Below, piece by piece: positions 1-28,842 of a DNA stretch of 40,814 nt. Both the position numbers and the translations under genes were made by a program. The notes below the pieces were generated by a model. That model was not told the DNA's origin and did not search any database. It saw only the letters and a list, made by a program, of their open reading frames with translations. Within the stretch, counting starts at the first letter, position 1, and every line of letters begins with the position of its first letter. Source of the stretch: Candidatus Desantisbacteria bacterium (lineage in GTDB: Bacteria; JACRDZ01); contig JACQWU010000022.1 in the NCBI GenBank assembly GCA_016209155.1, positions 1-40,814 of the forward strand, written 5' to 3'.

Positions 1-755
1 CCGGAGCTGTAGCAATATTGGTCAGTGATACTCCCCATGTTTTCCAAATTGATAAAGGTGCTAATGGATATTACGGATATGAAGTAATGGATACATGCCG
101 GCCTGTTCCTGATAGTGAGGCTGGTGATTCTGATTTATCTTTATTGTCCTATCTGGATTGTTGTGAACAGGCATTTTTGGAATATCAAAAACGTGTAACA
201 GGTGCGGATTATCGGCAAACATTCAATTATCTTGCTTTTCATACTCCTTTCGGTGGAATGATTAAAGGAGCGCATCGGACAATGATGCGGAAAATGGCTG
301 GAGCCAAACCCTCAGAGATTGAAATAGACTTTACGCAGCGTGTCATGCCAGGTCTGATTTACTGTCAACGAGTAGGGAATATGATGGGAGCCACTGTTTT
401 TATGTCGCTGGCAAGCACTATTGATAATGGTTGTTTTGATTCCCCCAAGCGAATCGGATGTTTTTCCTATGGATCAGGGTGCTGTTCTGAGTTTTATAGC
501 GGTGTTGTTACAACACGAAGCCAGGATATCCAGCGTCGTTTTGATATAGGCCGCTACTTGAGAGAACGCTATCAATTATCAATGGATGAATATGATGCTT
601 TATTAAAAAGCAATAGTGCAATTAAATTCGGCACACGAAATGTTTCATTGGATTTTCAATTATTTCCTAAAGCATTGACATTATGTCAGGGAAGAGAACG
701 TTTATACCTGGAAAAAATTAGAGAATTTCATCGTCAATACAAATGGATATCATAA
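1..755 (+). CDS. HMG-CoA synthase-like beta-branching enzyme (PksG/CurD-type HMGS), C-terminal part; the 5' end runs off the window
   Basis: The frame is open from nt 3 (GAVAILVSDTPHV...), so the TTG at 18 is not the true start. The translation has HMGS-family signatures (YLAFHTPFGGM, GNMMGATVFMSLAS, SYGSGCCSEFY). It sits directly upstream of a PksI-like crotonase and AT-less PKS genes. Stop TAA at 753-755. Confidence 0.85.
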   Translation, partial: GAVAILVSDTPHVFQIDKGANGYYGYEVMDTCRPVPDSEAGDSDLSLLSYLDCCEQAFLEYQKRVTGADYRQTFNYLAFHTPFGGMIKGAHRTMMRKMAGAKPSEIEIDFTQRVMPGLIYCQRVGNMMGATVFMSLASTIDNGCFDSPKRIGCFSYGSGCCSEFYSGVVTTRSQDIQRRFDIGRYLRERYQLSMDEYDALLKSNSAIKFGTRNVSLDFQLFPKALTLCQGRERLYLEKIREFHRQYKWIS

Positions 756-774
756 ATTGTTAGTGGAGAGAATA

Positions 775-1524
775 ATGTCAGAAGCAGTTGTTAAGGTACA
801 CGAAATAGAACAAGGTATTGTTCAATTGACTATGCAGGATCGGGTGAATAAAAATACGTTTTCCGAGGAAATGATCCTTGACCTGATCCAGTCATTTGAA
901 TTAATCAAATCCAATTTAAATTATAAGGTGGTAGTTTTAACCGGATATGATAATTATTTTGCTTCAGGAGGAACAAAGGAAGGTTTATTAGCTATACACC
1001 AGGGCAAGGCAAAATTTGCGGATAGGAACATTTATAGCCTTGCATTGGAATGTAAGATTCCTGTGATTGCTGCTATGCAGGGGCATGGAATTGGAGGCGG
1101 ATTTGTAATGGGATTATTTGCCGATTTTGTGATCTTAAGCAGAGAAAGTATTTATACAACTAATTTCATGAAATATGGATTTACTCCGGGAATGGGTGCA
1201 ACGTACATTGTACCTAAGAAACTAGGAATTAGTTTGGCAGAAGAATTATTGCTCAATGCCGGTAATTATCGAGGAGCAGAGCTTGAGAAGCGAGGCATTC
1301 CATTTCCTGTGTTGCCTCGAGAACAGGTCTTGGATCATGCATGTGAAGTGGCTAGACAATTAGCTGAAAAGCCGAGGATATCATTAATCACTTTAAAGGA
1401 TCATTTAACTACACCTCTTCGGGAAGAACTTCCTAAGGTTATTGAGCAAGAACTTGCAATGCATGAAAAGACGTTTCATCAAGAAGAAGTTAAAGATAGA
1501 ATTCTTGGATTATTTGGAAAATGA
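775..1524 (+). CDS. Enoyl-CoA hydratase/crotonase-fold beta-branching enzyme, PksI-like (ECH2 decarboxylase type)
   Basis: GGAG at 765-768 precedes ATG 775, so I prefer this to the TTG at 757. The translation closely resembles my recollection of B. subtilis PksI (LTGYDNYFASGGT, IPVIAAMQGHGIGGGFVMGLFADFVILSRES, NFMKYGFTPGMGAT, EQELAMHEKTFHQEEVK). The crotonase fold is secure; the ECH2-versus-ECH1 assignment needs phylogeny. Confidence 0.8.
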   Translation: MSEAVVKVHEIEQGIVQLTMQDRVNKNTFSEEMILDLIQSFELIKSNLNYKVVVLTGYDNYFASGGTKEGLLAIHQGKAKFADRNIYSLALECKIPVIAAMQGHGIGGGFVMGLFADFVILSRESIYTTNFMKYGFTPGMGATYIVPKKLGISLAEELLLNAGNYRGAELEKRGIPFPVLPREQVLDHACEVARQLAEKPRISLITLKDHLTTPLREELPKVIEQELAMHEKTFHQEEVKDRILGLFGK

Positions 1525-1581
1525 TCAAAAGATTCCTGATAGATTTCAAAATATTTGTTCCAGGAACAAAGGAGAAGAGCT

Positions 1582-2757
1582 GTGGACATACAAGAAATAT
1601 TACGTGCTTTAAAGGCAAGGGAAATAACTCCTGAAGAGGCGAAAAAGGAAATAACAAAAATAAAAACAATTAAAGAGCAATCCTCGAACTCTTTTGCAAA
1701 GTTATCTAAAAAACATGATGTTTCTATACAGTTACCAAATTTAAATTCTGCATGCATGGATTTGGAACAATCATGTACAAAAAATAAAGAAAATACACCG
1801 GAAATAGAATCTATAAGAGAAGAGAAAATTTCTTCACCAACGGATACTAAAGAGGCTATTGCAATCATTGGTATGTCAGGAAGATATCCCGATGCAGGTA
1901 ATTTGGAACAATATTGGGACAATCTGGTTCATGCAAAAAATTCGATCAGAGAAATACCTTTATCTCGTTGGGATGTAAATCAATATTATGACCCGCAACC
2001 TTTTAAAAAAGGGAAAATATACTGTAGACGCATAGGATTGCTGGAAAATATAGAATATTTTGATCCTTTATTTTTCAATATTTCACCTGTTGAAGCAGAA
2101 CTTATTGACCCGCAGCATCGTATTTTTATGCAAGAAGCTTATAAAGCATTTGAAGATGCAGGTTACAACAGTAGCTCATTAAACAACAAAAAATGCGGTG
2201 TCTATATGGGAATTATGAGTAATGAATACGGGATGATAGTGAATAAAAACTATCCTGAACTGACCAATACAACTGGTAACAGTTATGCAATTGCAGCAGC
2301 GCGGATATCTTATTTCCTTGATCTTAAAGGACCTGCCATTTCAATTGACACTGCATGTTCTTCATCATTGGTGGCAACACATTTAGCCTGTCAGGCATTA
2401 TTAAATAAAGAAATTGATATGGCATTAGTAGGCGGTGCAACTCTTTACTTAACACCGGAGTCATATATCGGTATGTGTGCATCTGGTATGTTATCACCAG
2501 AAGGTCAATGTAAAACTTTTGATAATAGTGCTGATGGTTTTGTTCCTGGCGAAGGCGTCGGGGCCATTGTATTAAAAAGATTAAAAGATGCTGAGGCTGA
2601 CAATGATAATATATATGGCGTTATCATCGGCTCGGGGATCAATCAGGATGGTAAGACAAATGGGATTACAGCTCCGAGCGTTAATGGTCAAATGGAATTG
2701 GAACGAGATATTTATGACAAATATAGTATCCATCCTGAAAGTATTAGTTACACTTAG
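1582..2757 (+). CDS. trans-AT polyketide synthase, N-terminal piece (docking-like helix plus the first ~3/4 of KS1), ended by an in-frame TAG
   Basis: AAGGAG at 1569-1574 sits 7 nt before GTG 1582, which is in frame with the track's TTG 1555. The N-terminus VDIQEILRALKAREITPEEAKKEI looks like a trans-AT docking helix. KS1 starts near nt 1852 (IAIIGMSGRYP) and carries DTACSSS, with the Cys codon at 2356-2358. The frame stops at TAG 2755-2757 inside the conserved Y-x-E-A-HGTGT motif. Confidence 0.85.
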   Translation: MDIQEILRALKAREITPEEAKKEITKIKTIKEQSSNSFAKLSKKHDVSIQLPNLNSACMDLEQSCTKNKENTPEIESIREEKISSPTDTKEAIAIIGMSGRYPDAGNLEQYWDNLVHAKNSIREIPLSRWDVNQYYDPQPFKKGKIYCRRIGLLENIEYFDPLFFNISPVEAELIDPQHRIFMQEAYKAFEDAGYNSSSLNNKKCGVYMGIMSNEYGMIVNKNYPELTNTTGNSYAIAAARISYFLDLKGPAISIDTACSSSLVATHLACQALLNKEIDMALVGGATLYLTPESYIGMCASGMLSPEGQCKTFDNSADGFVPGEGVGAIVLKRLKDAEADNDNIYGVIIGSGINQDGKTNGITAPSVNGQMELERDIYDKYSIHPESISYT

Positions 2758-5700
2758 ATGCATGGGACAGGAACAAAACTGGGAGATCCCATTGAATTAG
2801 AGGCATTATCTACAGTTTTCAAAGAAAGGACACATCAAAAAAAATTTTGTGCAGTAGGATCTGTAAAAAGTAATATCGGTCATACATCAGCAGCAGCCGG
2901 TGTGGCAAGTGTTCAAAAAGTAATATTATGTCTTAAGTATAAAAAACTGGTGCCGACATTACATTTTAAAAATCCTAATGAACATTTTAATTTTGATGAT
3001 TCTCCATTTTATGTCAATACCCAATTGCGGCCGTGGGAAGATAGAAAGGGAAAACTGCTGCGTGCTTGTGTAAGTTCCTTTGGGTTTAGCGGGACGAATG
3101 CCCATATTGTTATCGAAGAATATCGTCCCAGAAACGACATGGCTCAAACAGCGATGCTTATCAGTAAAGATAAGCCTGTTTTATTTGTATTCTCTGCAAA
3201 GAGGGAGCAGCAGTTGAAAATCTATGCGGAATGCATGAAGAATTGGATCGAATCCAATGAAGATTTTAATCTGTCAGATATGGCCTATACTCTGCAGATG
3301 GGCAGAGAGGAGATGGACTATCGCCTTGTTTTTATAGCAGATTCGAGAGAGGCATTACTTATAAAATTAAAGGGGTTTATCGAAAATAGTCACGTGGCAG
3401 GATTCCTTACTGCACAGGTAAAAAAGAGCAAAGATGGAGTGACAATTTTTGAAACTGATGAAGATGCTAAATCTTTGCTGAGAACTTGGATGAAAAAAGG
3501 TAAATTGAAAAACATAGCAGAATTATGGGTGAAAGGTTTAAATATGGATTGGGAAGAACTATATGACGATATCAAACCTCGCCGCATCAGCCTTCCAACC
3601 TATCCCTTTGCCTGTGAGCGATATTGGGTTCCTGCTATCAAAGCCGAATCTTCATGCGGTAAAGCAGCATACATTACTGCTGCTGATATTCATCCCTTGC
3701 TACACCGCAACACATTCGATCTTTCTGAACAACGATTTAGTTCCACTTTTACGGGTAAGGAATTTTTCCTGGCGGATCATATCGTGAATAGTCAGCGGAT
3801 ATTGCCTGGAGTAGCCTATCTTGAGATGGCCTATGCAGCGTTATGCAGGATCAAAGTTGGTACTGTGAAGGGTCTCTCGAACGTAGTCTGGCTGAGGCCA
3901 TTGGAGGTAGGAGAAAACAGCGTCGAGGTGCATATCATTATTAATGAGAGATATCAGTATGAGATTCAGAGTAGTGATCATGAGGGGCAGAGTCGCGTAC
4001 ACTGCCAAGGTGAGCTATGTCTGAACGATCACGAGGGAGGGAGAGAGCAGCGGCTGTTGATAGAAGAAATTAAGGTACGGTGTACGCATCGGATCGACAA
4101 CCAAACGCTTTATGAACGTATTCGCAAGTTCGGCATTGAGCATGGGCCATCAATGCAGGGAGTGTGTGAGGTGTGGGTTGGAAAAGATGAGGCATTGGCT
4201 GTACTGGAGGTGCCGCATGGTCGTGAAGACGTGGGCTACTACACATTGCATCCTGCGTTGATGGATGGAGCACTTCAAAGCATCGCAGGACTTATGGACG
4301 GATCCACTACTAACAATAGAAGTCCCAGACTGCCATTCAGTGTTGAGAGCATGGAAGTGCTGCATCCTATCAAAGCACAGGGTTATGCGTATGTAAAGGT
4401 GTCAGATAAGGAAAGATTTAATATAGAAATAACGGATAAGAGCGGACTGGTTTGCCTCAGGGTTTATAATCTTGCGTTGCGGGAAATGAGAGATCCTTTT
4501 GATTCGTTCTTCTACGTACCAACATGGAAAGAGGCATTTCAGACAGTTCAGACATCGAGGGAAACTAAACATGTAGGCAGGAGGATTATTATTATCTATC
4601 ATGAGGATAGCGGAGGACTTGAAAGGGAACTGGCAAAGGCGCATGCGGGAGATGAGGTAGTGATGTTGAAGCTCGGGAGTAAAACAGTAAGACATTCCGA
4701 GTATCACTGGGAAATAGAAGAGAAAGATCCTGAGTCACTGGGCAGGTGCGTTGAGCAGATCGAAGCACTGCATACGGTCTATCATCTTGGAGGCATTGGG
4801 GATAGTGAAGTCATTTTAAATGATCCGAAGTCATTGAAGCGGAGCCAAGAAAGAGGAGTAATATCTCTGTTTAGGCTGATCAAATCGCTTTCAAGGCAAG
4901 GATACTATCTGCGCCCTCTTAATCTCAAAGTGATCACCAATAATGTACATCAGGTGATACATGATGGAGATGCCATCAGACCTTATGGAGCGAGTCTTCA
5001 TGGATTGGTGAAGTCAGCGGCAAAGGAGTACCCGAAGTGGAGCTTAAGTTGTATTGACATCAGTTTGCAAGATATGCACGAGAAGCATCTCCTTGCAGAA
5101 GCGATCATTGCAGAACAGGGAAATCCGATGGGCAATGAGGTCGCAATCAGAAAGGGAAGGCGATATGTGCGGGTGATCGAGCCGATACTGCTGCCTGCGG
5201 TCAATCAGTCGCCATTTAAGCATGAGGGGGTATATCTCATTATAGGTGGAGCCGGGGGAATCGGGCTGGAGCTGAGCCGGCATTTAGCAGAGACAGTACA
5301 GGCGAAGCTCGTGCTTATAGGACGGAGCGAACTCAAGAAGAAACAGAAGGAGAAAATATCCCTCATAGAATCGAGAGGTGGGCAAGTGCTCTATCTACGA
5401 GCGGATATCACTGATCTTGAGAGCATGAGAAAGGCAGTCAAGGAAGCGAAGGTATGTTTTGGCAGAATCAACGGAGTGATACATTCGGCCATTGTGCTGA
5501 GAGATAAGACCATAGAAAATATGGATGAAGAGATGTTTATGGAGGCATTGAACCCGAAGGTGAAGGGCAGTTTGGTGCTTCGTGCGGCTATAGAGAGTGA
5601 TAAGTTGGATTTTATGATGTTTTTCTCCTCAGTTCAATCATTTATAGGAGCAGCAGGCCAGGGCAACTATGCTGCTGGATGTGCGTTCAAGGACGCCTTT

Positions 5701-8700
5701 GCGCAGTATCTCAATGCAACGGAGCCTTATCCAGTGAAGATTATCAACTGGGGATATTGGGGTAGTGTAGGAGTAGTGGACTCAGAGGAATACAACCGGC
5801 GGATGGCGGCCAAGAGGATAAGCTCGATCTTTCCTTCAGAGGGGATGGAAGCAGTGCGAAGGGTAATGGGTAATCGGACAAATCAGGTGATACCGCTTAA
5901 GGCAGACAGAGCAGTGCTGAAGCAACTGGGAGTGGATCTTGCATATCCTCTTCATCTCTATCCTCTCGAGATACCATCGGTACTGGATGGAGCTTTAAGT
6001 CAGGTCAGAGCACCTGAGATGGACAGTAGCATTCTGGAACAGCTTCCGAAGGCTATGGATGAGCTCGAGCGGTTTGGATCCCTATCACTGCTCGATGCCT
6101 TTCATCGGATGGGAGTATTTCATAGACACGATGAAAAATATGAGAAAGAGGAGCTTAAGAAGAAGCTAAAGATCATTTCTCGTTACTCCCGTCTATTTGA
6201 TGCACTGTTGCGCATACTGGAGCGGTCAGGATTCATTACACTCAAGGAAAAGGAAGTGTTTATTACAGAGGATTCAGCAATCATTAAAGTGCAGGATGCG
6301 GTAAAAGAATTTGAAAAGAAAAAAAATGAGTTAGCCCTCATTCATCTTGAACTCAGAGCTCATTTAAATTTACTATCAACCTGTGTGAAGGAATACCCTC
6401 GGATCCTTACGGGAGATATTCCAGCAACTGACATCATGTTTCCTCATACCTCAATGGAATTGGTGAAGGGGATATACAAAGGGAATTTGTTGGTGGACTT
6501 TTTTAACAGCTTAGTAGTCTGGAGCCTAAGAGCATACATTCAGGCACTGATCCCCAATTTAGGTAAGGATGATAAGATCAAGATTCTTGAGGTGGGTGCA
6601 GGGACAGGGGGTACCAGTGCAGCGATATTTGATGGGATCAGGGAATATAGAGAGCGATTGCAGTATTTATATACGGATATTTCTGTTGCATTTACTCAGT
6701 ATGGAGAGAAGCATTATGGCGGGGAAAATCCCTATGTCGAATTTAGAGTTCTAAATATTGAAGATGATCCAATAAATCAGGGGTATGGGGCTGGGGAATT
6801 TGATGTGGTAATCGGAGCCAATGTGTTGCATGCTACAAAAGCAATACGAACTACCCTTCGTAATATCAAAATACTCTTGAAGACAAACGGGTGCTTGATC
6901 ATCAATGAGCTTACAAAGAATAATAATTTTGCTACGCTTACCTTTGGGCTGCTGGAAGGGTGGTGGTTGTTTGAGGACGAGGAGAATCGTTTAAAGGGAT
7001 CTCCTCTGCTCAGCCCGGATTTGTGGGAGAGGGTTCTCAAAGAAGAGGGATTTGAGCGTGTGCATATAGTGCGGCAGTCTAATTCGAGTGTTCAAGAATC
7101 AGGCCAGAGCATTGTCATTGCTGAAAGCAACGGCATAGTAAAACAACTTCGATCACAAGCAATACCTGCTGAGAGGTCCATATCTGAGCCGCAGAGATCG
7201 AGGCATTCTCTTTCTGCTCCGCATGTTATAGTCAAGGGTTCTTGCAAACCAAATCAAGATGCAACAAGGTCACAGGACGAGGAGGCTCAACAGAAAACAG
7301 ATGAAGAGGATATCAGGCATTATGCAGAGGAGAAAATTATAGAATGTCTGATTTATGCCCTTAAGATTGATAGACGGCACTTTGATCCGATTACACCGTT
7401 CACCGAGTTTGGCGTTGATTCGATTCTTGCTGTTGAGATCATCAACCAGGTCAATGAGAAGCTAGGCGTTACTTTGAGGACGACTGACCTGTTCAACTAC
7501 TCAACTATCGGCATGCTCAGTGAATACATTGCCAAAGAGTTTGGCGAGATATTAATCTGCAAGACCACGACTCATAATAAAATGCCTGCTGAAATCAGGA
7601 CAGAGGAATTATTTAAGACCAATTCTGAGAGCAGCAGTATACAGAGAGAGACACAAGAAGGGGACAACTATGCAGCAGCATCAAACATCAAAGGAGAAGG
7701 TTTTAGGGATTGCGCACAAGAAACTACAAGGCATTCGTCTCAGACTACCCATGCAGAGGACTCAGATATAGCCATAATAGGCATATCGGGACGGTTTCCC
7801 GGAGCTAATGATATTAATGAATATTGGATGAATTTGAAAAGTGGAAAAAATTCAATAGATGAGTTAAAAAGATGGAAGTTAAACACATTTTATGATCCTG
7901 ATCCGCAAGCACCAGACAAGAGCTACTGCAAGTGGGGTGGGATGCTGGAGGACATTGATAAGTTTGATCCTCTGTTTTTCAATATCTCACCAAAAGAGGC
8001 TGAACTGATGGACCCTCAGCAACGGCTATTTTTAGAAGAGGCGTGGAAGGCTTTGGAGGATGCAGGTTATTCTGACAGGGAGCTTGAGGGAAAAAGGTGC
8101 GGAGTGTTTGTGGGCAGTGGAGCAGGAGATTATACAACCATCTTAAAAGAGAGGGATATATCTCCAGATGCGTATGCCTTCGTGGGAAACAGCCAGTCCA
8201 TTTTGGCAGCACGCATATCATATTTTCTGAATCTGAAGGGACCGGGGATTGCCATTGATACTGCCTGCTCATCGTCACTGGTAGCAATTCATTTGGCATG
8301 TGAGAGTATTCTGAGCGGGACATGCGAGTTAGCAATAACCGGAGGTGTGACTATCCTTACTACATCATCCTTTCATATCATGGCGAGTCGGGCAGGCATG
8401 CTATCTCCTGACGGGCAATGCAAGGTCTTTGACCATAATGCAAACGGTTTTGTCCCGGCTGAGGGTGTGGGGGCAGTAGTTTTAAAACCTTTGGAGCAAG
8501 CCCTCAGAGATGGGGATCATATATATGGAGTTATTGTTGGATCAGGGATCAATCAAGACGGGAGGACTAATGGAATCACAGCTCCCAGCGGACCATCTCA
8601 GACTGCATTGGAATGTGAAGTGTATAACCGATATAGGATTCATCCCGAGAGAATTACCTATATAGACGCACACGGCACCGGGACCAAGCTTGGGGATCCG

Positions 8701-10581
8701 ATTGAGATTAATGCACTGACGAATGCTTTTAGAAAATACACAGATAAGAGGCACTTCTGTGCAATCGGATCAGTGAAAACCAATATCGGACATACAAATA
8801 TGGCTGCTGGGGTTGCCAGCTTGATCAAGGTACTCCTTTGTTTGAAACACAAGGAAATTCCATCCTTACTCAATTTTGAACGTGTAAACAAACATATTAA
8901 TTTTGAAGATAGCCCATTTTATGTGAATACTGAGCTTAAGGGTTGGGAAACAGAGAATGGAGTTCCAAGGTATGCTGCTGTCAGCTCATTTGGCTTTAGC
9001 GGAACGAATGCTCATTTAGTGGTCAGAGAGGCATGTGAACAAAAAATGAGGCAAAGAGTAAGCTCCTCAAGGTCTTGGCATCTTATTGTGCTTTCAGCGA
9101 AAACTGAAGAGTCTCTTAGACGCAAGTGGAAAGATCTTATAGAATGGCTTGAAAATGAGGAAGACGGTCACCTCATAGAAGATATTGCTGGAACATTACA
9201 GATTGGAAGAAGTCATTTCCAAATTCGTTTTGCAACAGTAGTAAGCAATGCAGGTGAGCTTAGGAAAAACCTTAGGGCTATTATAGAGGGCAGAGAGGCG
9301 AGCGATTATCTCACTGGGACACTCGACGAAGGACAAACTAAACTTGAGCCTTCGCTGAAACTGCTTGGAAAGAAACTGATTGATGATCTTGAAAATATTG
9401 GGATTCCTGAAATTGAATACAAAGATAAGCTTATGACCTTAGCAAATCTGTATATAAAGGGTTATGACATAGATTGGAATAGGATATATACTAATGGAAC
9501 ATGGCATCGTATTGCCCTACCAACCTATCCTTTTGCTGAAGAGCGATATTGGATACCGGAACAAAAGACTCCTAAAGCTGTAAATGATGGAAGACATCAT
9601 TTCACAAAACTGCATCCATTGATTGATGCAAATACATCTACCTTGGAAAAGCATGAATTTACCGTGCAGCTGAGAGGTAATGAATTTTATCTCGCAGACC
9701 ATATCATAGTAGGGAATAAAGTGCTGCCGGCAGTTGCCTATATAGAAATGGCACGCGCAGCAGGAGAGATAGCAGGTAAAAAGAGGGTGCGGTCCATTAG
9801 GAATCTTGTCTGGATGAAGCCCTTGATCATAGAAGATCAGCCTCAAGACGTGTGCGTGAGCTTGAATCTGAATGGTAAGGCGGTTGATTATAAGATAAGC
9901 AAGATTGAAGAAAATGGACGGAGTACATTGCATTCTCAGGGAACAATTGAATATGATGATAATGAAAACAACCTGTCTAATCCTAATGTAATTAATATTG
10001 AGACAATTAGAAAGAGATGTTGTGGATTAAAGAGTAGAGAGGATTTCTATAAAGAATTTCATAGTAAGGGGTTAAAGCTTGGACCTAGTTTTCAATCAAT
10101 TCAGGAACTATTGATCGGTGACACCGAAGTAGTATCCCGCATAAAGTTACCGGATAGTCTTGCAGAAGGAGCGCATGAGTTTATCTTGCATCCTGCATTA
10201 ATGGATGGAGCATTGCAGACAGTTTCAGGTCTGATAGGAAATGATGTGAGAGAGTGCTCTGAAACTGTTTATGTTCCATTTTCGATAGGAGAAGTTCATA
10301 TACATGGACATTTGGCAAAAGAGTGCTTTGCTTATGTAACCATGACGCCTGTGCAGTCTGTTACTGATTACAGCGTGTCTAAATTTGATATTTGGATAGT
10401 AAATGAAGAAGGATACGTATTGATACACTTAAAAGATCTCTCGGTTAGAGCGCTAGATAATACATCAAGGGCTTCAAAGGAAGCACGTGATGAGGAGATA
10501 ATAAGTTTATTGGAAATGCTTAGTAGTAGTAAATTGTGTGCTGATGATGTTGAGCAGCGTATTATGAAAGGGGATAAGTGA
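2758..10581 (+). CDS. trans-AT polyketide synthase, continuation of the same frame: (KS1 C-term)-DH-KR-cMT-ACP-KS2-DH
   Basis: Same reading frame as 1582-2757. Domains read from motifs, with approximate nt positions:
- KS1 C-terminal part, to ~3125 (HGTGTKLGDPIE, SNIGHTSAAAG, GTNAHIVIEEY)
- KS flanking subdomain, ~3170-3650 (LPTYPFACERYWVP)
- DH1, ~3688-4490 (HPLL, LADHIVNSQRILPGVAYLEM, HPALMDGALQ)
- KR1, ~4510-5800 (GGAGGIG near 5245, VLRD)
- C-MT1, ~6060-7135 (ILEVGAGTGGT, GANVLHAT)
- ACP1, ~7315-7545 (GVDSI, Ser codon 7420-7422)
- KS2, ~7765-9030 (Cys 8266-8268, AHGTGT, NIGH)
- flanking subdomain, ~9060-9560
- DH2, ~9610-10455
- helical C-terminal tail
There is no AT domain. Confidence 0.9.
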   Translation: MHGTGTKLGDPIELEALSTVFKERTHQKKFCAVGSVKSNIGHTSAAAGVASVQKVILCLKYKKLVPTLHFKNPNEHFNFDDSPFYVNTQLRPWEDRKGKLLRACVSSFGFSGTNAHIVIEEYRPRNDMAQTAMLISKDKPVLFVFSAKREQQLKIYAECMKNWIESNEDFNLSDMAYTLQMGREEMDYRLVFIADSREALLIKLKGFIENSHVAGFLTAQVKKSKDGVTIFETDEDAKSLLRTWMKKGKLKNIAELWVKGLNMDWEELYDDIKPRRISLPTYPFACERYWVPAIKAESSCGKAAYITAADIHPLLHRNTFDLSEQRFSSTFTGKEFFLADHIVNSQRILPGVAYLEMAYAALCRIKVGTVKGLSNVVWLRPLEVGENSVEVHIIINERYQYEIQSSDHEGQSRVHCQGELCLNDHEGGREQRLLIEEIKVRCTHRIDNQTLYERIRKFGIEHGPSMQGVCEVWVGKDEALAVLEVPHGREDVGYYTLHPALMDGALQSIAGLMDGSTTNNRSPRLPFSVESMEVLHPIKAQGYAYVKVSDKERFNIEITDKSGLVCLRVYNLALREMRDPFDSFFYVPTWKEAFQTVQTSRETKHVGRRIIIIYHEDSGGLERELAKAHAGDEVVMLKLGSKTVRHSEYHWEIEEKDPESLGRCVEQIEALHTVYHLGGIGDSEVILNDPKSLKRSQERGVISLFRLIKSLSRQGYYLRPLNLKVITNNVHQVIHDGDAIRPYGASLHGLVKSAAKEYPKWSLSCIDISLQDMHEKHLLAEAIIAEQGNPMGNEVAIRKGRRYVRVIEPILLPAVNQSPFKHEGVYLIIGGAGGIGLELSRHLAETVQAKLVLIGRSELKKKQKEKISLIESRGGQVLYLRADITDLESMRKAVKEAKVCFGRINGVIHSAIVLRDKTIENMDEEMFMEALNPKVKGSLVLRAAIESDKLDFMMFFSSVQSFIGAAGQGNYAAGCAFKDAFAQYLNATEPYPVKIINWGYWGSVGVVDSEEYNRRMAAKRISSIFPSEGMEAVRRVMGNRTNQVIPLKADRAVLKQLGVDLAYPLHLYPLEIPSVLDGALSQVRAPEMDSSILEQLPKAMDELERFGSLSLLDAFHRMGVFHRHDEKYEKEELKKKLKIISRYSRLFDALLRILERSGFITLKEKEVFITEDSAIIKVQDAVKEFEKKKNELALIHLELRAHLNLLSTCVKEYPRILTGDIPATDIMFPHTSMELVKGIYKGNLLVDFFNSLVVWSLRAYIQALIPNLGKDDKIKILEVGAGTGGTSAAIFDGIREYRERLQYLYTDISVAFTQYGEKHYGGENPYVEFRVLNIEDDPINQGYGAGEFDVVIGANVLHATKAIRTTLRNIKILLKTNGCLIINELTKNNNFATLTFGLLEGWWLFEDEENRLKGSPLLSPDLWERVLKEEGFERVHIVRQSNSSVQESGQSIVIAESNGIVKQLRSQAIPAERSISEPQRSRHSLSAPHVIVKGSCKPNQDATRSQDEEAQQKTDEEDIRHYAEEKIIECLIYALKIDRRHFDPITPFTEFGVDSILAVEIINQVNEKLGVTLRTTDLFNYSTIGMLSEYIAKEFGEILICKTTTHNKMPAEIRTEELFKTNSESSSIQRETQEGDNYAAASNIKGEGFRDCAQETTRHSSQTTHAEDSDIAIIGISGRFPGANDINEYWMNLKSGKNSIDELKRWKLNTFYDPDPQAPDKSYCKWGGMLEDIDKFDPLFFNISPKEAELMDPQQRLFLEEAWKALEDAGYSDRELEGKRCGVFVGSGAGDYTTILKERDISPDAYAFVGNSQSILAARISYFLNLKGPGIAIDTACSSSLVAIHLACESILSGTCELAITGGVTILTTSSFHIMASRAGMLSPDGQCKVFDHNANGFVPAEGVGAVVLKPLEQALRDGDHIYGVIVGSGINQDGRTNGITAPSGPSQTALECEVYNRYRIHPERITYIDAHGTGTKLGDPIEINALTNAFRKYTDKRHFCAIGSVKTNIGHTNMAAGVASLIKVLLCLKHKEIPSLLNFERVNKHINFEDSPFYVNTELKGWETENGVPRYAAVSSFGFSGTNAHLVVREACEQKMRQRVSSSRSWHLIVLSAKTEESLRRKWKDLIEWLENEEDGHLIEDIAGTLQIGRSHFQIRFATVVSNAGELRKNLRAIIEGREASDYLTGTLDEGQTKLEPSLKLLGKKLIDDLENIGIPEIEYKDKLMTLANLYIKGYDIDWNRIYTNGTWHRIALPTYPFAEERYWIPEQKTPKAVNDGRHHFTKLHPLIDANTSTLEKHEFTVQLRGNEFYLADHIIVGNKVLPAVAYIEMARAAGEIAGKKRVRSIRNLVWMKPLIIEDQPQDVCVSLNLNGKAVDYKISKIEENGRSTLHSQGTIEYDDNENNLSNPNVINIETIRKRCCGLKSREDFYKEFHSKGLKLGPSFQSIQELLIGDTEVVSRIKLPDSLAEGAHEFILHPALMDGALQTVSGLIGNDVRECSETVYVPFSIGEVHIHGHLAKECFAYVTMTPVQSVTDYSVSKFDIWIVNEEGYVLIHLKDLSVRALDNTSRASKEARDEEIISLLEMLSSSKLCADDVEQRIMKGDK

Positions 10582-13500
10582 GTAAACAAAGTTTAGACCT
10601 GAAAAAAATTCTTGAAATGGTGAAAAACAAACAAATAGCACCAAAAGAGGGATTTAAGTTAATCAAGCAGGTTCAACAGGGGATATCACAGGCAATAGAA
10701 GTTGCTGGTGATTTGGAGAACTCTGCTTCTCTCTATTATCAAATGCAATGGGAAAAGTCTGAAGCACCTGCAGAAAGTGAAAAAAAGAATCCATTGGCGA
10801 GTGTTTTGCTTTTTGCCACTGATGAGGGGGTATTTAAAACAATACAAAATCTAAAAGATTATGAAGGGAATGAATCATCAGTGATAATGGTTAAATATGG
10901 TGAATCTTATAGGGCTTTTGGTAAGCTGATATATGAAATTAATCCAGAAAGCCGTGAGGATTACTATCACCTCATCAAGGAACTGAGGAAAGAGGAATTG
11001 CTGCCGAGTAAAGTTATTTACCTCCGATCAGGAAAATCTTTATCCAATAATGAAGAAATCCTAATATCTCAGTTCAGGCAAGATGTATATCCAGTACTGT
11101 TTCTGAGCCAAGCAATTCTCGATGAGGGGATAAGAGATAAAATCAAATTTCTTTACATCTATTTATGTCAGAGCGATGAGCTGTACCCTCAGTATGCAGC
11201 AATGGGTGGATTTGCAAGGTCTGTTCACCTTGAGAACCAGAGGTTCTTTTTCAAGGTGATTGGTGTACGGAGTATGTCAAACTCCAATCAAATTGCCAAT
11301 ATAATAGCGTATGAATTTGAAACTGAAGATGCTGAGGCTGAGGTCTTATATGACGGAGATAACCGGTTAATAAGGCGTTGGAAGGAGATTGAAACAGAAA
11401 ATGACAAGGGAAAATCAGTACAATTGAGAGACAGGGGAGTGTATGTGATCACAGGCGGAACAGGCGGACTTGGACTGATCTTTGCTGAATATTTAGCCAA
11501 AAATGTGAGGCCGAGATTGGTGCTGGTAGGACGTTCCGAACTAACTGCGGACAAACAGAAAAGGATAAAAGATATAGAGGCATTGGGGGCTGACATAGAG
11601 TACATCAGGGCTGATGTATCCAAAAGAGAAGAGGTTGAAGAACTTATAGCCAAGATAAAGTCTCGCTTTATGGAAGTTCATGGCGTAATTCACGCTGCAG
11701 GAGTGATCAATGATTCTTTTGTAGTGAAGAAAACAAAGGAAGAGATGGATGAAGTCCTGTCTCCGAAGGTGTACGGAACAATCTGGTTAGATGAGTTGAC
11801 AAAAGAAGAGCCATTGGACTTTTTTATAACGTTTTCCTCAATAGCGGGGATAATAGGTAATATAGGGCAATGTGATTATGCATATGCAAACAGCTTTATG
11901 AACTATTATGCTGAAAAGAGGGCGGCATTAGGACGGCACGGCAAAACTCTTTCCATTATATGGCCATTGTGGAAAAAGGGGGGAATGAGAATTGATGAAC
12001 AGACAGAGAAATTATTGAGCGACACAATGGGAATAAGATTGATGGATCGAGAAACTGGACTGATGGCGATTGAAAAGGGGTTAAGATTGGGAGGAAGCCA
12101 TCTTATTCCCTTGGTAGGCGATACAGATAAAATAAGGCTTAGATTTGATAATATAGAAAGTCTGTCTTTATTAAAGACAGATGCCATGCAAACTTTGACG
12201 CAAACAGATGAGGTGAGTTTAACGAAAAATCTTCAAAAGGATATGTTGAGTCTCGTGTCGGATATTTTGAAGATCGATGAGAAAAGAATCAATCTTGATA
12301 GTAGCCTGACTAAGTTTGGATTTGACTCCATAACTTTTACAGAACTGGCAAATAAGATCAACGATAAGTATCACATTACCATTATGCCCACGGTGTTCTT
12401 TGAGCATTCATCTTTGAGATCAATAGTTTCATATTTGATCAAAGAACAAAGAGACAGTATGATTTATTACTACAAGAGCAAAATGAGCGTACCGATCAAT
12501 GCGTTAGCTGACAGTTTGATACAGAAAAAAGCTGATGAGAAGATAGCGGAGACGGAAACGATAGTCCGATCTCGGTATAATAAAAGTCACGAGGAGTTCA
12601 GAGAGCAAGGAAGGACGGCTATAAAAGATAATATAGCAATCGTTGGGATGAGTGGAGTAATGCCACAATCAGAGGATCTTGAGGAATTTTGGAGACATTT
12701 AGAGGAAGGTAGAGATATGATCACTCAAATTCCTATAGACCGGTGGGACTGGAAGGAATACTATGGCGACCCGATAACAGAGGCTAACAAGACCAACATA
12801 AAGTGGGGCGGATTCATGAAAGAGGTGGATAAATTTGATCCCCTGTTTTTTAATATCTCACCTTATGAAGCAGAACTGATGGATCCTCAAGAAAGAATTA
12901 TCATTGAATTGATATGGAAGACCATAGAGGATTCCGGATACAGGGCATTGGATTTCTCAGGTACAAAGACCGGACTTTTCATTGGGATATCTAGTGCAGA
13001 CTACCGAGAGTTAATGATAGAGCAACACATGTCAATGGGAGTAAGTCAATCAATAATAGCCAATCGAGTATCTTACTGCTTTAATTTTCGAGGTCCGAGT
13101 GAACCTGTGGATACAGCCTGCTCAAGCTCACTAGTCGCAATTCATCGTGCTGTAGAAGCGATCCAAAATGGCCATTGTGATACTGCGTTTGCAGGAGGGA
13201 TCAATGTTATTGCGAGTCCGAATTTGTATGTTGTGTTCAGCAGAATGGGTGCTCTCTCTGACAATGGCAAGTGTAAGACCTTTGACAAAAATGCGAACGG
13301 GTATGTCAGAGGAGAGGGAGCAGGGATTCTCATGCTCAAGTCTTTGAGCAGGGCTGAGGCAGATGGAGATTATATTTACGGCGTAATTAAGGGGACAGCG
13401 GTAAACCATGGAGGCCGTGCCAGCTTTTTTACCGCACCTAATCCCAATGCCCAGGCAGAGGTGCTGATAGAAGCTTATGAGAGAGCAGGAGTAGACCCTT

Positions 13501-16500
13501 CGACATTGAGTTACATAGAGACGCATGGAACAGGGACAAGTCTTGGGGATCCTATTGAAATTGAGGGTTTAAAGAAGGCATTCAAGGAGCTCTATAAGAG
13601 ATGTAATAAACCTATATCGAAAAAGGCGCACTGTGGATTAGGATCAGTAAAGACTAACATAGGTCATTTGGAAGCAGCATCAGGTGTGGCAGGTGTGATC
13701 AAGGTATTATTAGCTATGAAGCACCAGCGGCTCCCAGGATTGCTTAATTTTAAGGAGATGAATCCATATATTCAGTTAGAAGGCAGTCCTTTTTATATCA
13801 TAACCGAGTCAATGGCATGGGGTCGCTTAAGGGATGAAGAGAAAATGCCTATACCGCTTAGGGCAGGAGTGAGCTCTTTTGGCATGGGAGGGGTTAATGC
13901 TCACGTAGTGCTTGAGGAGTATAGGGACAATAATAAACAAATCATAGCAGAAAATAAGGAGACCCAGGTGTTTGTGCTATCGGCAAAGAATGAAAAGCAG
14001 TTGAAGGAGTATGCCGAGAAGATGGTAAAATTTTTTGACAGGGCATTTGATAAAAAAGAGGTTACCATTGCTAATATCGCCTATACGCTCCAGGTGGGCA
14101 GGGAGGCAATGGAAGAACGGCTTGCACTCATAGTGTCAAGCATACAGGATTTGAAAGAAAAGTTATCTCAATATGCTCAGGGAGCAGAGCATATTGAAAA
14201 TGTATATAGAGGAAATGTAAAAGCGAATAAGGGTATATCAGAACTTTTGGATGGAGGAGAGGAAGAGCATGCATTCATCAGGAGATTAATAGCTGTCAAA
14301 AGGATTAGCAAACTTGCGCAGATGTGGGTGTCAGGAGTAAATATCGAATGGAAGTTACTTCATGAATTGCAAACTACACGCCGTATCGCTCTACCGACTT
14401 ATCCATTTGCAAGAGAGAAGTGCTGGATACCAAAAATAGAACAAGCAGCTGTTATCGCAAGCAACAAACAAGTGCAAGTAACTGAAAGTAGTAACCTGAT
14501 ACATAATAACTATGTCAAAAATTTTGAGCAGGAACAGAGTATAATACCTCATCAAATAGTTAAAAATACGAATTTGGAGAATACAGAAGTACTATTTACT
14601 GCTACCTCAGAGTATTTTAAGAATGTATTTTCATCTGCATTAAAAATAGATTCGAAGATGATTGATATTGAAACAGATTTTCAGGAATATGGACTTGACT
14701 CAATTATGGTTAACCAGCTCAATAAAATCTTAGAAGGAAAGTTTGGCAAATTATCTCCAACATTGCTTTTCACACACAAGAATATAAAAACCTTAACCGG
14801 ATATTTTGTGAAGAACTACATTGAAAAATTGAGATATATCATTGGAGTGTCCCAGAATAATAATAAAGTTAATCTTACAACATCAAAACAGGAGAGACAA
14901 ATAGGAGAGGTCATCAAGGAGACAAGCAATAAGGATTCGTATAATGAAGAAATCGCAATCATCGGTCTAAGCGGGCAATTTCCCTTAGCCAGTAATGTAG
15001 ATGAGCTCTGGGAGAATTTAAAAGCAGGAAGAGATTGCATTACTGAGGTTCCCAAAGAGAGATGGGATTATAAAGAGTTTTATGATCCGGAAAAAAGGAA
15101 AATAGGGAAAACATGCTGCAAGTGGGGCGGATTCCTTAAAGAAGTGGACAAGTTCGATCCCGCTTTTTTCAATATAAATCCCGAAGAAGCTGTGATAATG
15201 GATCCGCAGGAGAGGTTGTTTTTACAAACCGTATGGGCATGCCTTGAGGACGCAGGATATACGCGTACAATGTTAAAAGATAATAATACAAAAGACATAG
15301 GTGCGGCTGTAGGGGTATTCGTAGGAGCGAGTTTTCATTCCTATCCGCTGCACGTTGCGGAACAATGGAAAAAAGGTGTATTAGTCCCATTACATACGCA
15401 AACATTTTCCATAGCAAATCGCATATCGTATTTCTTTAATCTCAGCGGTCCGAGCGTCTCAATGGACACTGCGTGTTCTTCATCGCTTTATGCCCTCCAT
15501 CTTGCCTGTGAAAGCATTAGAAGAGGAGAATGCAGGTTTGCAATAACCGGAGGAGTGAATCTTCCATTGCATCCCAGTCAATACATAACTCTATCTGCGG
15601 TAGGCATGCTTTCCGCTCAGGGTCATTGCCGATCATTTGGTGAAGGCGCGGATGGGATGGTTCCCGGAGAAGGTGTAGATGCAGTACTTCTGAAACCTCT
15701 TAAAGATGCAATAAGAGATCGAGATCATATCTATGCTGTAATTAAGGGAACTGCTGCAAATAATGACGGCAAAACCTATGGTTATACTACCCCGAATCCG
15801 ATTGCCCAGTCTGAAGTCATCAGGAAGGCCTTAACGAAATCGAATGTGGATACTAAAACAATAAGTTATATTGAGGCGCATGGAACCGGCATTGTCTTGA
15901 GCGATACGATAGAGATAGAAGCATTGAGCAACGCATACGAATCTTATTCAAAAGAGAGGAACTATCGCGCGATCGGATCCATAAAATCCAATATTGGCCA
16001 CATAGAAGCACCGGGTGGAATAGCTGGCTTAATTAAAGTGCTGCTACAGATGAAATATAAACTATTAGTACCTTCGATTCATTCTGAAAAATTGAACTCA
16101 CATATAAATTTTGAGAACACACCTTTTTATGTTCAACAGAAACTGGAAGAATGGAAACAACCGGTTATAGAGGAAAATGGAAAAGTTAAAATATATCCGA
16201 GACGCGCAGGCCTGAGTTCGTTCGGCGCAGGTGGAGTAAACGTACATATTATAGTAGAAGAGTATCCTTCTTTTGGCGCAGACCATAGTTGCACGGGCAA
16301 GGATAATCTAATTCCTTCAGCTTCATCACTAATTAATGCTGTAATGAATGAGGTAAGGCCATTATTGATTCAGTCGTTTAATAAAATCGACATAAACCTC
16401 TATGAAAAAGGATATAAGGATTTGAATAAGTGGACCCGTCTTTTGCTGTTAAACGCTTTCCAAAATATGGGCCTATTTAATAAATCCGAAGAAAGATATC

Positions 16501-18014
16501 AAAGACGTGAATTGGTGGAGAGGCTGAATATTCTAGTAAAGTACCGGCAACTGTTCGATGGTCTCCTTACTATATTAACGCAAGGCAGATTTCTTAAAAA
16601 AGACGGTGATGTTATAGCGTGCACCTCAAGAGTAGAAAGTGAGGAAACAAAGAAGCATCTTATGAATTTGGAACATACCAAGGAAGATCTAATACAAAAA
16701 TATCCATTATTAAAATCATACTTGTCTCTGCTCTGGATATGCATAAGCAATTATCCGGATATCCTGACCGGGAAAAAATTGGCAACAACTGTTATGTTTC
16801 CTAACTCTTCTATGGAATTGGTGGAAGGTATATATAAAGCTTTCAGCAAAGAATTTTCAATGGTCGCAAAATGCATAGGTTCATATGTTAAAAGGCGATG
16901 TGCGGAGTTGGGCGAGGGGGAAAAGATAAACATTCTCGAAATAGGAGCAGGAACAGGGGGAACCACGGTTTCAGTATTGGAAGCAATAGAAGAATATAGT
17001 GATAAAATACGGTATGTCTATACGGATGTATCAATAGGCTTTTTGTTTCATGGAGAGAATTTGTACGGTAAAAAATATGATTTTATGGAATTTAAATTAT
17101 TAGACATTGAAAAGAGTGCATTTGAACAGGGCATTAAGCAAGCCGAATATGACATTATTATCGGTGCTAATGTTTTCCATGCAACCAAAAAAATGGATAA
17201 CACATTACTGAATGTAAAAGAGTTGCTGAAGACAAATGGGCTATTGATTATGGAGGAAACAACTTCCAAAGTAGACTTTTTATTATTGACATTCGGCTTA
17301 TTAGATGGATGGTGGCTATATGAAGATAAAGAAAACCGTATTGAGGAATCTCCACTACTCAATATAGATAGTTGGAAGAGGTTGTTAGAAAAAATTAATT
17401 TTCAGAATGTTGGCTTTTTAGGTTATCAAGGCTCGATGCAACATATGATAGTGGCAGAAAATAGCTGTGTTCAGAGAATAGAATATCCTCTTTGTGAGTT
17501 TAAGGCACTAAACCATATAATCCTGCCCATATCAGCAATGAATAAGCAAAGCCTCTACTCTAATGCCAAACAGCTGAAGGATTTTTTGCGAAAGAACAAA
17601 GAACAAAGAAACTTTATATTGCTACTTGAGGATATTGCTTATACTTTGCAAGTTGGGAGAGAGCCTATGCGGCACAGGCTGGCCTTTACTGGCAAGACTC
17701 ATGATGAAATAATCGAGAAAATAGATATGTATCTTAATACTCCCCTCAAGAAAGTTGATATGTTTGAATTAAATAATGTTTCTCTGGACGAAATTGATTT
17801 AAAAGAAAAGACCTTTATTGGTAAAAAGGTTGATGCAGAGCAAATGAATAACCTTATTCAGCAAGGGGCAATGGACAAGTTGGCTGATCTATGGGTACAA
17901 GGAATGGAGGTTGATTGGAACTCACTTTACATGGGATACAAACCATCACGTGTCTCATTGCCTACTTATTCCTTTCTCAAGGAACGATATTGGGTATCTG
18001 ATAAAAATGGTTAA
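10578..18014 (+). CDS. trans-AT polyketide synthase: KR-ACP-KS3-ACP-KS4-cMT-(KS flanking subdomain); no AT, no terminal ACP, no TE
   Basis: GTG 10578 overlaps the upstream TGA (GTGA). The N-terminus is a docking-like helix (LDLKKILEMVKNKQIAPKEG). Domains, with approximate nt positions:
- KR2, ~10730-11990 (GGTGGLG near 11454)
- ACP2, ~12230-12440 (GFDSI, Ser 12327-12329)
- KS3, ~12630-13925 (Cys 13119-13121, THGTGT, NIGH)
- flanking subdomain, ~13960-14430 (LPTYPFAREKCWIP)
- ACP3, ~14600-14820 (GLDSI, Ser 14700-14702)
- KS4, ~14947-16265 (Cys 15474-15476, AHGTGIVLSD, NIGH)
- C-MT2, ~16330-17465 (ILEIGAGTGGT, GANVFHAT)
- flanking-type subdomain, ~17500-18000 (EDIAYTLQVGREPMRHRLAF ... LPTYSFLKERYWVS). 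Confidence 0.9.
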   Translation: MSKQSLDLKKILEMVKNKQIAPKEGFKLIKQVQQGISQAIEVAGDLENSASLYYQMQWEKSEAPAESEKKNPLASVLLFATDEGVFKTIQNLKDYEGNESSVIMVKYGESYRAFGKLIYEINPESREDYYHLIKELRKEELLPSKVIYLRSGKSLSNNEEILISQFRQDVYPVLFLSQAILDEGIRDKIKFLYIYLCQSDELYPQYAAMGGFARSVHLENQRFFFKVIGVRSMSNSNQIANIIAYEFETEDAEAEVLYDGDNRLIRRWKEIETENDKGKSVQLRDRGVYVITGGTGGLGLIFAEYLAKNVRPRLVLVGRSELTADKQKRIKDIEALGADIEYIRADVSKREEVEELIAKIKSRFMEVHGVIHAAGVINDSFVVKKTKEEMDEVLSPKVYGTIWLDELTKEEPLDFFITFSSIAGIIGNIGQCDYAYANSFMNYYAEKRAALGRHGKTLSIIWPLWKKGGMRIDEQTEKLLSDTMGIRLMDRETGLMAIEKGLRLGGSHLIPLVGDTDKIRLRFDNIESLSLLKTDAMQTLTQTDEVSLTKNLQKDMLSLVSDILKIDEKRINLDSSLTKFGFDSITFTELANKINDKYHITIMPTVFFEHSSLRSIVSYLIKEQRDSMIYYYKSKMSVPINALADSLIQKKADEKIAETETIVRSRYNKSHEEFREQGRTAIKDNIAIVGMSGVMPQSEDLEEFWRHLEEGRDMITQIPIDRWDWKEYYGDPITEANKTNIKWGGFMKEVDKFDPLFFNISPYEAELMDPQERIIIELIWKTIEDSGYRALDFSGTKTGLFIGISSADYRELMIEQHMSMGVSQSIIANRVSYCFNFRGPSEPVDTACSSSLVAIHRAVEAIQNGHCDTAFAGGINVIASPNLYVVFSRMGALSDNGKCKTFDKNANGYVRGEGAGILMLKSLSRAEADGDYIYGVIKGTAVNHGGRASFFTAPNPNAQAEVLIEAYERAGVDPSTLSYIETHGTGTSLGDPIEIEGLKKAFKELYKRCNKPISKKAHCGLGSVKTNIGHLEAASGVAGVIKVLLAMKHQRLPGLLNFKEMNPYIQLEGSPFYIITESMAWGRLRDEEKMPIPLRAGVSSFGMGGVNAHVVLEEYRDNNKQIIAENKETQVFVLSAKNEKQLKEYAEKMVKFFDRAFDKKEVTIANIAYTLQVGREAMEERLALIVSSIQDLKEKLSQYAQGAEHIENVYRGNVKANKGISELLDGGEEEHAFIRRLIAVKRISKLAQMWVSGVNIEWKLLHELQTTRRIALPTYPFAREKCWIPKIEQAAVIASNKQVQVTESSNLIHNNYVKNFEQEQSIIPHQIVKNTNLENTEVLFTATSEYFKNVFSSALKIDSKMIDIETDFQEYGLDSIMVNQLNKILEGKFGKLSPTLLFTHKNIKTLTGYFVKNYIEKLRYIIGVSQNNNKVNLTTSKQERQIGEVIKETSNKDSYNEEIAIIGLSGQFPLASNVDELWENLKAGRDCITEVPKERWDYKEFYDPEKRKIGKTCCKWGGFLKEVDKFDPAFFNINPEEAVIMDPQERLFLQTVWACLEDAGYTRTMLKDNNTKDIGAAVGVFVGASFHSYPLHVAEQWKKGVLVPLHTQTFSIANRISYFFNLSGPSVSMDTACSSSLYALHLACESIRRGECRFAITGGVNLPLHPSQYITLSAVGMLSAQGHCRSFGEGADGMVPGEGVDAVLLKPLKDAIRDRDHIYAVIKGTAANNDGKTYGYTTPNPIAQSEVIRKALTKSNVDTKTISYIEAHGTGIVLSDTIEIEALSNAYESYSKERNYRAIGSIKSNIGHIEAPGGIAGLIKVLLQMKYKLLVPSIHSEKLNSHINFENTPFYVQQKLEEWKQPVIEENGKVKIYPRRAGLSSFGAGGVNVHIIVEEYPSFGADHSCTGKDNLIPSASSLINAVMNEVRPLLIQSFNKIDINLYEKGYKDLNKWTRLLLLNAFQNMGLFNKSEERYQRRELVERLNILVKYRQLFDGLLTILTQGRFLKKDGDVIACTSRVESEETKKHLMNLEHTKEDLIQKYPLLKSYLSLLWICISNYPDILTGKKLATTVMFPNSSMELVEGIYKAFSKEFSMVAKCIGSYVKRRCAELGEGEKINILEIGAGTGGTTVSVLEAIEEYSDKIRYVYTDVSIGFLFHGENLYGKKYDFMEFKLLDIEKSAFEQGIKQAEYDIIIGANVFHATKKMDNTLLNVKELLKTNGLLIMEETTSKVDFLLLTFGLLDGWWLYEDKENRIEESPLLNIDSWKRLLEKINFQNVGFLGYQGSMQHMIVAENSCVQRIEYPLCEFKALNHIILPISAMNKQSLYSNAKQLKDFLRKNKEQRNFILLLEDIAYTLQVGREPMRHRLAFTGKTHDEIIEKIDMYLNTPLKKVDMFELNNVSLDEIDLKEKTFIGKKVDAEQMNNLIQQGAMDKLADLWVQGMEVDWNSLYMGYKPSRVSLPTYSFLKERYWVSDKNG

Positions 18015-18047
18015 ATAATTATTTTAACTGTATATAAAGGAGGGCTT

Positions 18048-19589: not shown

Positions 19590-20623
19590 AAGTCACGCAC
19601 ATATTTACATATAACGAAGGTCCCTGGTACTCGGCTTTGGAAGCGATGCATCTTTTGGGACAAAATAATATAATTACTGAAAAGGCTCTCAAAGCAACCG
19701 AATATGAAAAGCGCAGATTATTTGCCATAAATGACATTAAAAAAACACCACTTGATGACGCTACATTTTTTCATATTCTTACTAAAAGCTTTTTAACTAT
19801 GGCAAAATCTTTGGTTGATCAATATCTAAAATGGAAAGGCAATAATAAAAATATTAAATCCATTACTATTATAAACAGCCAGGGAATACCAAAACCTGGC
19901 TATGATGAAATGCTGAAAGAATTAATGAATATAAATAACATCCCAATTTATCATATCACGGGAATGAATTGCGCAAGTACTATTCTTGCCTTACAGCATT
20001 TGCATCATTTACGTAAAAAAGACCCTTTACGAAAAGAAGAAATCGATTTAATTTTTTCAATTGAGGTACCATCTATCATGATGCGCCTCAAAAGATCTAT
20101 ACTACAAATGCCTTATGTTCACTATGATGGAGTTGTATCCGATGGTGCCGGATTGGTTGTAATTGAATCTTCAGAAAGTAGCTTAGGTCTGGAAATTGTC
20201 GGACATCGTAATTTTCTCTATCCCAAAGCTCAAGAGAACTTAATGTCAAGAGCAATAGGGAATCAAGTAGAACATGGGCTAACCACAGAATCTATTGAAG
20301 ATATAAGACATGTCATCAAGGATGCTATCAATTATACCTTGTCAGATCTTAATCTGAATATGGAAAAGATCAATCACTGGATTTTACATCCTGGAGGAGT
20401 AAAAGTCATTAATACAGTATCTAAGGAACTCGGTTTAAAAGATGAGACTATGAAATATGCTCTTGATACTATACGCAGCCAAGGGAATTCCATGAGCAAT
20501 TTGATTCTCTATGTGTTGCAAAAATATTTCGAATCGAATACCTTTAGCAATAAAGATATTGCAATGCTAATCGGGATCGCTCCTGGTTTTGAAATTCAAA
20601 CGGTGACAGTACGCTATTGTTAA
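19586..20623 (+). CDS. Type III polyketide synthase-like (chalcone/stilbene synthase fold) condensing enzyme, divergent
   Basis: ATG 19586 overlaps the ligase stop (ATGA), and GGGGAGG at 19571-19577 serves as RBS. A Cys-His-Asn triad sits in CHS-like contexts: GMNCAST (Cys codon 19970-19972), WILHPGGVKVI (His 20387-20389) and QGNSMSNLILYVL (Asn 20486-20488). The HPGG context points to type III PKS rather than FabH, which has HQAN. Confidence 0.7.
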   Translation: MKVTHIFTYNEGPWYSALEAMHLLGQNNIITEKALKATEYEKRRLFAINDIKKTPLDDATFFHILTKSFLTMAKSLVDQYLKWKGNNKNIKSITIINSQGIPKPGYDEMLKELMNINNIPIYHITGMNCASTILALQHLHHLRKKDPLRKEEIDLIFSIEVPSIMMRLKRSILQMPYVHYDGVVSDGAGLVVIESSESSLGLEIVGHRNFLYPKAQENLMSRAIGNQVEHGLTTESIEDIRHVIKDAINYTLSDLNLNMEKINHWILHPGGVKVINTVSKELGLKDETMKYALDTIRSQGNSMSNLILYVLQKYFESNTFSNKDIAMLIGIAPGFEIQTVTVRYC

Positions 20624-28514: not shown

Positions 28515-28767
28515 CATTTTAAATATCATTGATCTTATAGCTGTCGGATTGGATTATACCAAATAAGATATAAAATAATTCTTAATAAACTAAAAAATAT
28601 TTCCCTGCTATTAAACTCTGATCCGAAGATTTTGGAAAAAGCTGGATAATAATAGAAGTGCAAAGTTCAACTACTTGTCAAAGTTATAATTTAGTACTAC
28701 TATATGCAATAGTAGTATATTGGATTGTATTAAATTTAAAGCATAGGAAATTGAAACGCTCGATAAA

Positions 28768-28813: not shown

Positions 28814-28842
28814 AACTGTCAAAAGTAAAAAGAAGGGAAAAT

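Follow-up and report, generated by a model that had tools for sequence, protein, structure and literature searches.

Background

Is an in-frame stop codon within a ketosynthase a property of the organism that carries it, or of the sequence deposited for that organism? The question is raised by a TAG at 2755-2757 of the window, a term which we use for the whole stretch of DNA analysed here, namely an entire contig of 40,814 nt (NCBI record) carrying part of a trans-AT polyketide synthase (PKS) cluster. An earlier note on this DNA described the codon as taking the place of the conserved Glu in a motif of the first ketosynthase (KS1), one G-to-T change away from GAG, and so as splitting a PKS gene in two; recent inactivating mutation, sequencing or assembly error and site-specific readthrough were offered as explanations.

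We report an analysis of this codon in its reading frame, in homologous ketosynthases and related loci, and in contigs assembled from the same groundwater population. The TAG differs by one base (T for G) from the population codon at 2755-2757, which is GAG (Glu). It belongs to the deposited contig and not to the organism's gene: PKS1, as the gene is called here, runs intact over about 3,000 codons. The stop itself most likely arose through an error of assembly and is otherwise no more than a rare variant.

Results

One stop codon in an otherwise open frame

PKS1 ends at the stop TGA at 10581 and measures 9,000 nt if begun at GTG 1582 or 9,027 nt if begun at TTG 1555. The GTG is the likely start; it is preceded by AAGGAG, and the gene on Logan contig L001 was independently called with the same start. 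The domains follow in the order N-terminal docking region, KS1, linker, DH, KR, C-MT, ACP, KS2, linker and DH. ORF 1555..2757 and ORF 2758..10581 have one frame, and the TAG, followed at once by an ATG at 2758, lies in it; no other internal stop occurs in 3,009 codons. The 2,607 codons downstream are all sense codons, in agreement with the earlier observation that the frame holds no further stop beyond 2757.

The Pfam alignment places the interruption precisely. The end of the upstream ORF matches positions 1-47 of PF02801 (Ketoacyl-synt_C) and the start of the downstream one matches positions 50-118, so that exactly one codon has been swapped and no insertion or deletion is involved. Both Pfam halves of KS1 are colinear across the TAG, the PF00109 match covering 2-252 of 252. 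At the site itself KS1 reads ESISYT, the stop, then MHGTGT; the corresponding stretches are ITYIDAHGTGT in KS2, LSYIETHGTGT in KS3 and ISYIEAHGTGI in KS4, just as the earlier note gave them. That note also held the catalytic residues to be intact, and each was located: the Cys codon at 2356-2358, within a DTACSS starting at 2347, the His of HGTGT at 2761-2763, and the His of NIGH at 2881-2883 (NIGH from 2872). Frame and Pfam alignment thus agree that the stop falls on the motif Glu and divides the PKS gene.

In its other features KS1 is an ordinary trans-AT PKS ketosynthase. It has PF00109 and PF02801, the Cys-His-His residues and a RhiE/CurL-type KS linker with no in-line acyltransferase (AT), and it is 66-73% identical to ketosynthases of Bacillus, Brevibacillus, Paenibacillus, Hazenella and Pelosinus, with which it shares the Y-x-E-M-HGTGT variant. 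The nearest named relatives are Bacillus ketosynthases of the PksL/BaeL and PksN types (bacillaene family), the names being those given by the sources of the best matches.

Table 1. Principal features of the window, with the basis of each assignment (X1 and X2 are metagenome runs; L024 is a related metagenome contig).
Feature	Position	Strand	Basis and remarks
HMG-CoA-synthase-like (HMGS) gene, 3' part, beta-branching cassette	3..755	+	Cut by contig end; 75% identity to L024 gene
Enoyl-CoA hydratase (ECH), beta-branching cassette	775..1524	+	PF00378 and PF16113 on identical Logan gene
PKS1, trans-AT PKS, about 3,000 codons	1582..10581	+	Pfam; interrupted only by TAG
KS1 domain	1852..2967	+	PF00109 1852-2592; PF02801 2614-2751 plus 2758-2967
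Stretch without any X1 contig	2704..2736		31-mers starting 2674-2736 seen at most once in X1
In-frame TAG in window, GAG (Glu) in X1 and X2 contigs	2755..2757	+	Logan contigs
PKS2: KR, ACP, KS3, linker, ACP, KS4, MT, linker	10578..18014	+	Pfam; start overlaps PKS1 stop codon
Two discrete acyltransferases	26650-27630, 27657-28514	+	PF00698

The cluster, its surroundings and its host

The cluster resembles known trans-AT PKS systems with beta-branching in having HMGS and ECH genes directly upstream of PKS1, together with two discrete ATs (Table 1). The first of these genes is named HMGS-like from a reading of its translation and not from a Pfam match. No match to PF00698, the in-line AT, was obtained in PKS1 or PKS2, and the combination of AT-less modules with two discrete ATs identifies the system as trans-AT. 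Further downstream lie genes for an acyl-AMP ligase, a KSIII/CHS-like enzyme, a MacB/FtsX-type exporter with LolA-like and DUF1302-like partners, and a PPTase. The window cluster is unlike the known trans-AT PKS systems in that it has no close orthologue (best KS 73%) and in that its copy in the window carries the lone TAG.

The end of PKS2 (14800-18014) is formed by KS4, MT and a KS-type linker and lacks a terminal ACP or TE. KS4 carries HGTGI and an unusual NIGHIEAPGG, and the acyl-AMP ligase and KSIII/CHS-like genes follow PKS2. This layout suggests either an unusual termination or an assembly line that is continued elsewhere.

The presence of recA and aroE farther along shows the contig to be chromosomal. 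RecA (36534-37571) has a best identity of 74% among 5.8 billion proteins, and its top named matches are scattered over the Firmicutes and Desulfuromonadota. With the best KS at 73% and the best RecA at 74%, the host is predicted to belong to a deep-branching groundwater lineage. The LolA-like and DUF1302-like genes hint at a diderm envelope.

Several features outside the PKS genes may be recorded here. An intergenic palindrome of about 58 nt occurs twice, at 28767-28824 and 33414-33472, and consists of two adjacent hairpins, GCAACTACA...TGTAGTTGC and GCCTGAT...ATCAGGC. The depth over the first copy (28783-28786) is about 470x in X1, 130-150x in X2 and 74x in X3, against 7x, 4x and 3x in the surrounding genome; it is raised at the second copy too (about 234x in X1), and many contigs link one copy to other sequence. 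The element looks like a REP- or MITE-like high-copy repeat. At 35160-35589, inverted-repeat arms of 36 nt (core TAAGCGTTCAGCTATCAGC) surround an insert of 358 nt with a small antitoxin-like gene (PF09720, ATG at about 35257 to TAG 35480) and an apparent toxin remnant. With a depth of 12-73x the arms are multi-copy, and in contigs of X1-X3 they enclose differing inserts; the region looks like a mobile or cassette-like toxin-antitoxin module. Finally, 28843-30158 holds a truncated ABC ATPase ORF of 177 aa (PF00005 positions 1-110 of 137, followed by an unrelated C-terminal tail), which abuts a partial DDE transposase ORF (PF01609 positions 57-198 of 200) and is probably an IS-disrupted gene at the cluster edge.

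Constraint on the interrupted codon

The position taken by the TAG is invariant among the relatives of KS1. Within the 120 nearest homologues the motif x-x-E-x-HG[TS]G[TI] was found 114 times, with Glu at the site in all 114 instances and with the E-M-HGTGT variant of KS1 in a third of them. The earlier note had proposed a comparison of orthologous loci. The motif was also found in 30 related loci from GTDB genomes and JGI metagenomes; 21 of these have GAA at the codon and nine have GAG, and in none is it a stop. Protein-guided scans of the same two collections for close orthologous loci returned relatives at 41-73% identity only, and no sister genome.

The nearest syntenic relatives of the window cluster are three of these related loci: L002 (Pelosinus baikalensis, NZ_JAJHJB010000021.1) and the metagenome contigs L024 (Ga0316600_10001501) and L032 (Ga0316613_10000718). 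Each has an ECH gene, 73-77% identical to that of the window, directly upstream of a docking-KS region that is 66-69% identical, and in each the PKS gene is an uninterrupted ORF, of 3,816 codons in L002, at least 2,006 in L024 and at least 2,232 in L032. L024 additionally carries an HMGS gene.

Contigs from the same population

The sequence of the window is present in five groundwater-metagenome runs of one study, X1 to X5. X1 (SRR12113406, for which we found no paper in the literature) contains 99% of the sampled 31-mers of window positions 1-10000, and no run ranks above it. The evidence here is at the level of per-run Logan contigs placed on the window, and such contigs omit minority variants.

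Two of the five runs cover base 2755, and in both it is G, at a depth of 4 of 4 in X1 and 6 of 6 in X2; X3, X4 and X5 have no coverage of the base. The reading frame of KS1, broken by the TAG in the window, is therefore open in the contigs of both covering runs. GAG at this codon had been named beforehand as the sign of an error, and the contigs of two independent samples show it. Among the contigs placed from X1-X5 none bears the T, and an exact 50-mer with N at 2755 had no match in the JGI metagenome contigs. The expected base is thus present in independent data from the same population, and T has no independent support there.

The remainder of the comparison shows how isolated this difference is. 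Over bases 1-40000, position 2755 is the sole difference between X1 and the window in single-copy sequence, and the long X1 contigs have no other letter that differs; the remaining listed differences are confined to multi-copy repeats near 28.78 kb and 35.28-35.50 kb. One further SNP was found in the PKS genes of X2: at 4369, within the DH region of PKS1, A>C turns ATC (Ile) into CTC (Leu). X3 shares this SNP, and X1 does not have it. The diversity observed in the population is 1-2 SNPs per 40 kb.

Thin coverage beside the stop

The mismatch lies beside one of the few weak places in X1. An X1 contig of 3,008 nt stops at 2703, and the next, which bears the G, begins at 2737 and is 289 nt long, with a depth of 4 against 7.2 and 8.1 in the flanks. 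Only two uncovered gaps exist in X1 over 1-20000, this one and 11128-11171; position 2755 is 19 nt from the first, and only about 1% of positions lie that near a gap. Logan discards k-mers that are seen once per accession (PMC12424806), so support across a gap in X1 is 1x at best. Paralogy between the ketosynthases is not the cause of the contig breaks, since the window contains no second copy of any 15-mer of 2600-3100. A chimeric assembly between KS paralogues was considered as a source of the T and rejected: the copies have no 15-mer in common, and at this codon the remaining ketosynthases have GAC or GAG, not TAG.

These observations allow the following account. The deposited contig would have been assembled mainly from X1, and its path over 2704-2736 would then hang on one or very few reads. 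A read of 150 nt that bridges this stretch would usually span 2755 too, and a miscall in it would give T as the consensus base. The G-bearing branch, beginning only at 2737, would have formed a short dead-end 'tip', and de Bruijn assemblers remove such tips while retaining the path that connects. Illumina sequencing and oxidative damage commonly produce G>T errors, and the error per base of a read is about 1e-3; set against 1-2 SNPs per 40 kb, the odd base of a lone bridging read is much likelier to be an error than a variant. About 4.8% of the possible substitutions in PKS1 create a stop, so that a random error would a priori seldom fall on one, although the site was chosen for review as a stop. 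We consider that the T at 2755 is probably a low-coverage assembly or consensus error, which favours the second of the options in the earlier note, GAG being the codon in X1 and X2.

Alternative explanations

The rival that survives best is a genuine minority nonsense allele, in which a recent G>T knockout of PKS1 in a subpopulation was followed by the assembler. At least one other SNP (4369 A>C) is present in the population, contigs are unable to show that reads with T are absent from X1, and populations commonly lose costly secondary-metabolite genes in some of their members. We nevertheless regard such an allele as less likely than an error. The assembled base is G in both covering runs, no contig or protein product bearing the T was found, and no second lesion accompanies the stop in 3,000 codons; moreover, an error would be expected to lie close to a coverage gap, as this site does, and a true SNP would not. 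Of the earlier suggestion of a recent inactivating mutation, what stands is a rare allele within the population, while a mutation characteristic of the lineage is contradicted by the GAG of X1 and X2.

Another rival is a pseudogene that has become fixed in a separate strain; the window would then have come from a sample whose strain had lost the function of PKS1. The protein records bear on this reading. Exact look-up among some 15 billion proteins returned no record of the three possible N-terminal products (starts 1555, 1582 and 1756, ending in ESISYT) or of the downstream product of 2,607 aa, and neighbouring proteins of the same NCBI contig are on record. Since the fragments of PKS1 are missing where their neighbours are present, the records suggest that the depositor's annotation pipeline flagged PKS1 as a pseudogene, which fits this reading. 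The partial GAG products expected from the X1 and X2 contigs are likewise not on record by exact look-up. A distinct strain is very improbable, however, as the window is identical to X1 over 1-40000 save for this base, and X1, at 99% of the sampled words, is outranked by no run. The gene shows none of the secondary decay, whether further stops or frameshifts, of a pseudogene, and the base is G wherever a run covers it.

It is more improbable still that the T allele is real and tolerated, either with the UAG decoded or read through, or with reinitiation at TAGATG and reassembly of a split ketosynthase in the thiolase fold. The adjacency of stop and ATG and the intactness of the rest of the gene would suit such a mechanism, but the otherwise identical sequence of the population carries GAG, and the related loci have GAA or GAG in 30 of 30. 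TAG was said by the earlier note to be a normal terminator at 26598, 28514, 29376 and 31031; all four are confirmed, and 35113 and 35480 may be added, each of the six being backed up by another in-frame stop 1-18 codons on. Within the window there are no tRNA genes and no Pfam match to pyl-like genes, and the 120 nt 3' of the stop fold no better than shuffled sequences (z = -0.67). As regards reinitiation, a direct reading bears out the claim that no Shine-Dalgarno sequence precedes ATG 2758, nothing resembling AGGAG being present, and the break would split the thiolase fold at an invariant residue within its Ketoacyl-synt_C half. Readthrough or recoding of the TAG at 2755-2757 is essentially excluded and the site-specific readthrough of the earlier note is not supported, in view of the GAG in otherwise identical sequence, the six genes ended by TAG and the lack of a downstream RNA structure and of any tRNA in the window. 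Genome-wide reassignment of TAG was rejected on the ground that TAG is the ordinary terminator of six other genes in the window.

Discussion

The stop in PKS1 has the marks of the consensus errors that give rise to 'internal stop' pseudogenes in low-coverage metagenomes: it is an isolated substitution, at about 7x depth, beside a spot of at most 1x. As with such errors in the annotation of metagenome-assembled genomes (MAGs), assemblies of the same population disagree with the deposited base and the products are absent from protein databases; in the present case the error is one that we infer. The likeness to UAG recoding (pyrrolysine) or programmed readthrough extends only to an in-frame UAG within an otherwise intact gene. 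Unlike a recoded codon, this UAG is not conserved even within its own population; neighbouring genes end in UAG, and the position demands Glu. The TAG at 2755-2757 is thus most likely no biological feature of note. Were the rare-allele reading true, PKS1 would simply be a secondary-metabolite gene with a loss-of-function polymorphism of an ordinary kind.

The case carries a caution for the study of such clusters. At about 7x coverage, one miscalled base can make an intact PKS gene of 9 kb appear as a pseudogene or as an instance of recoding, and as a consequence both fragments of the gene vanish from protein databases. For the purposes of cluster mining, PKS1 should be read with Glu at 2755-2757. 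The cluster is uncharacterised; it encodes a trans-AT PKS and a beta-branching cassette and comes from what appears to be a deep-branching groundwater bacterium.
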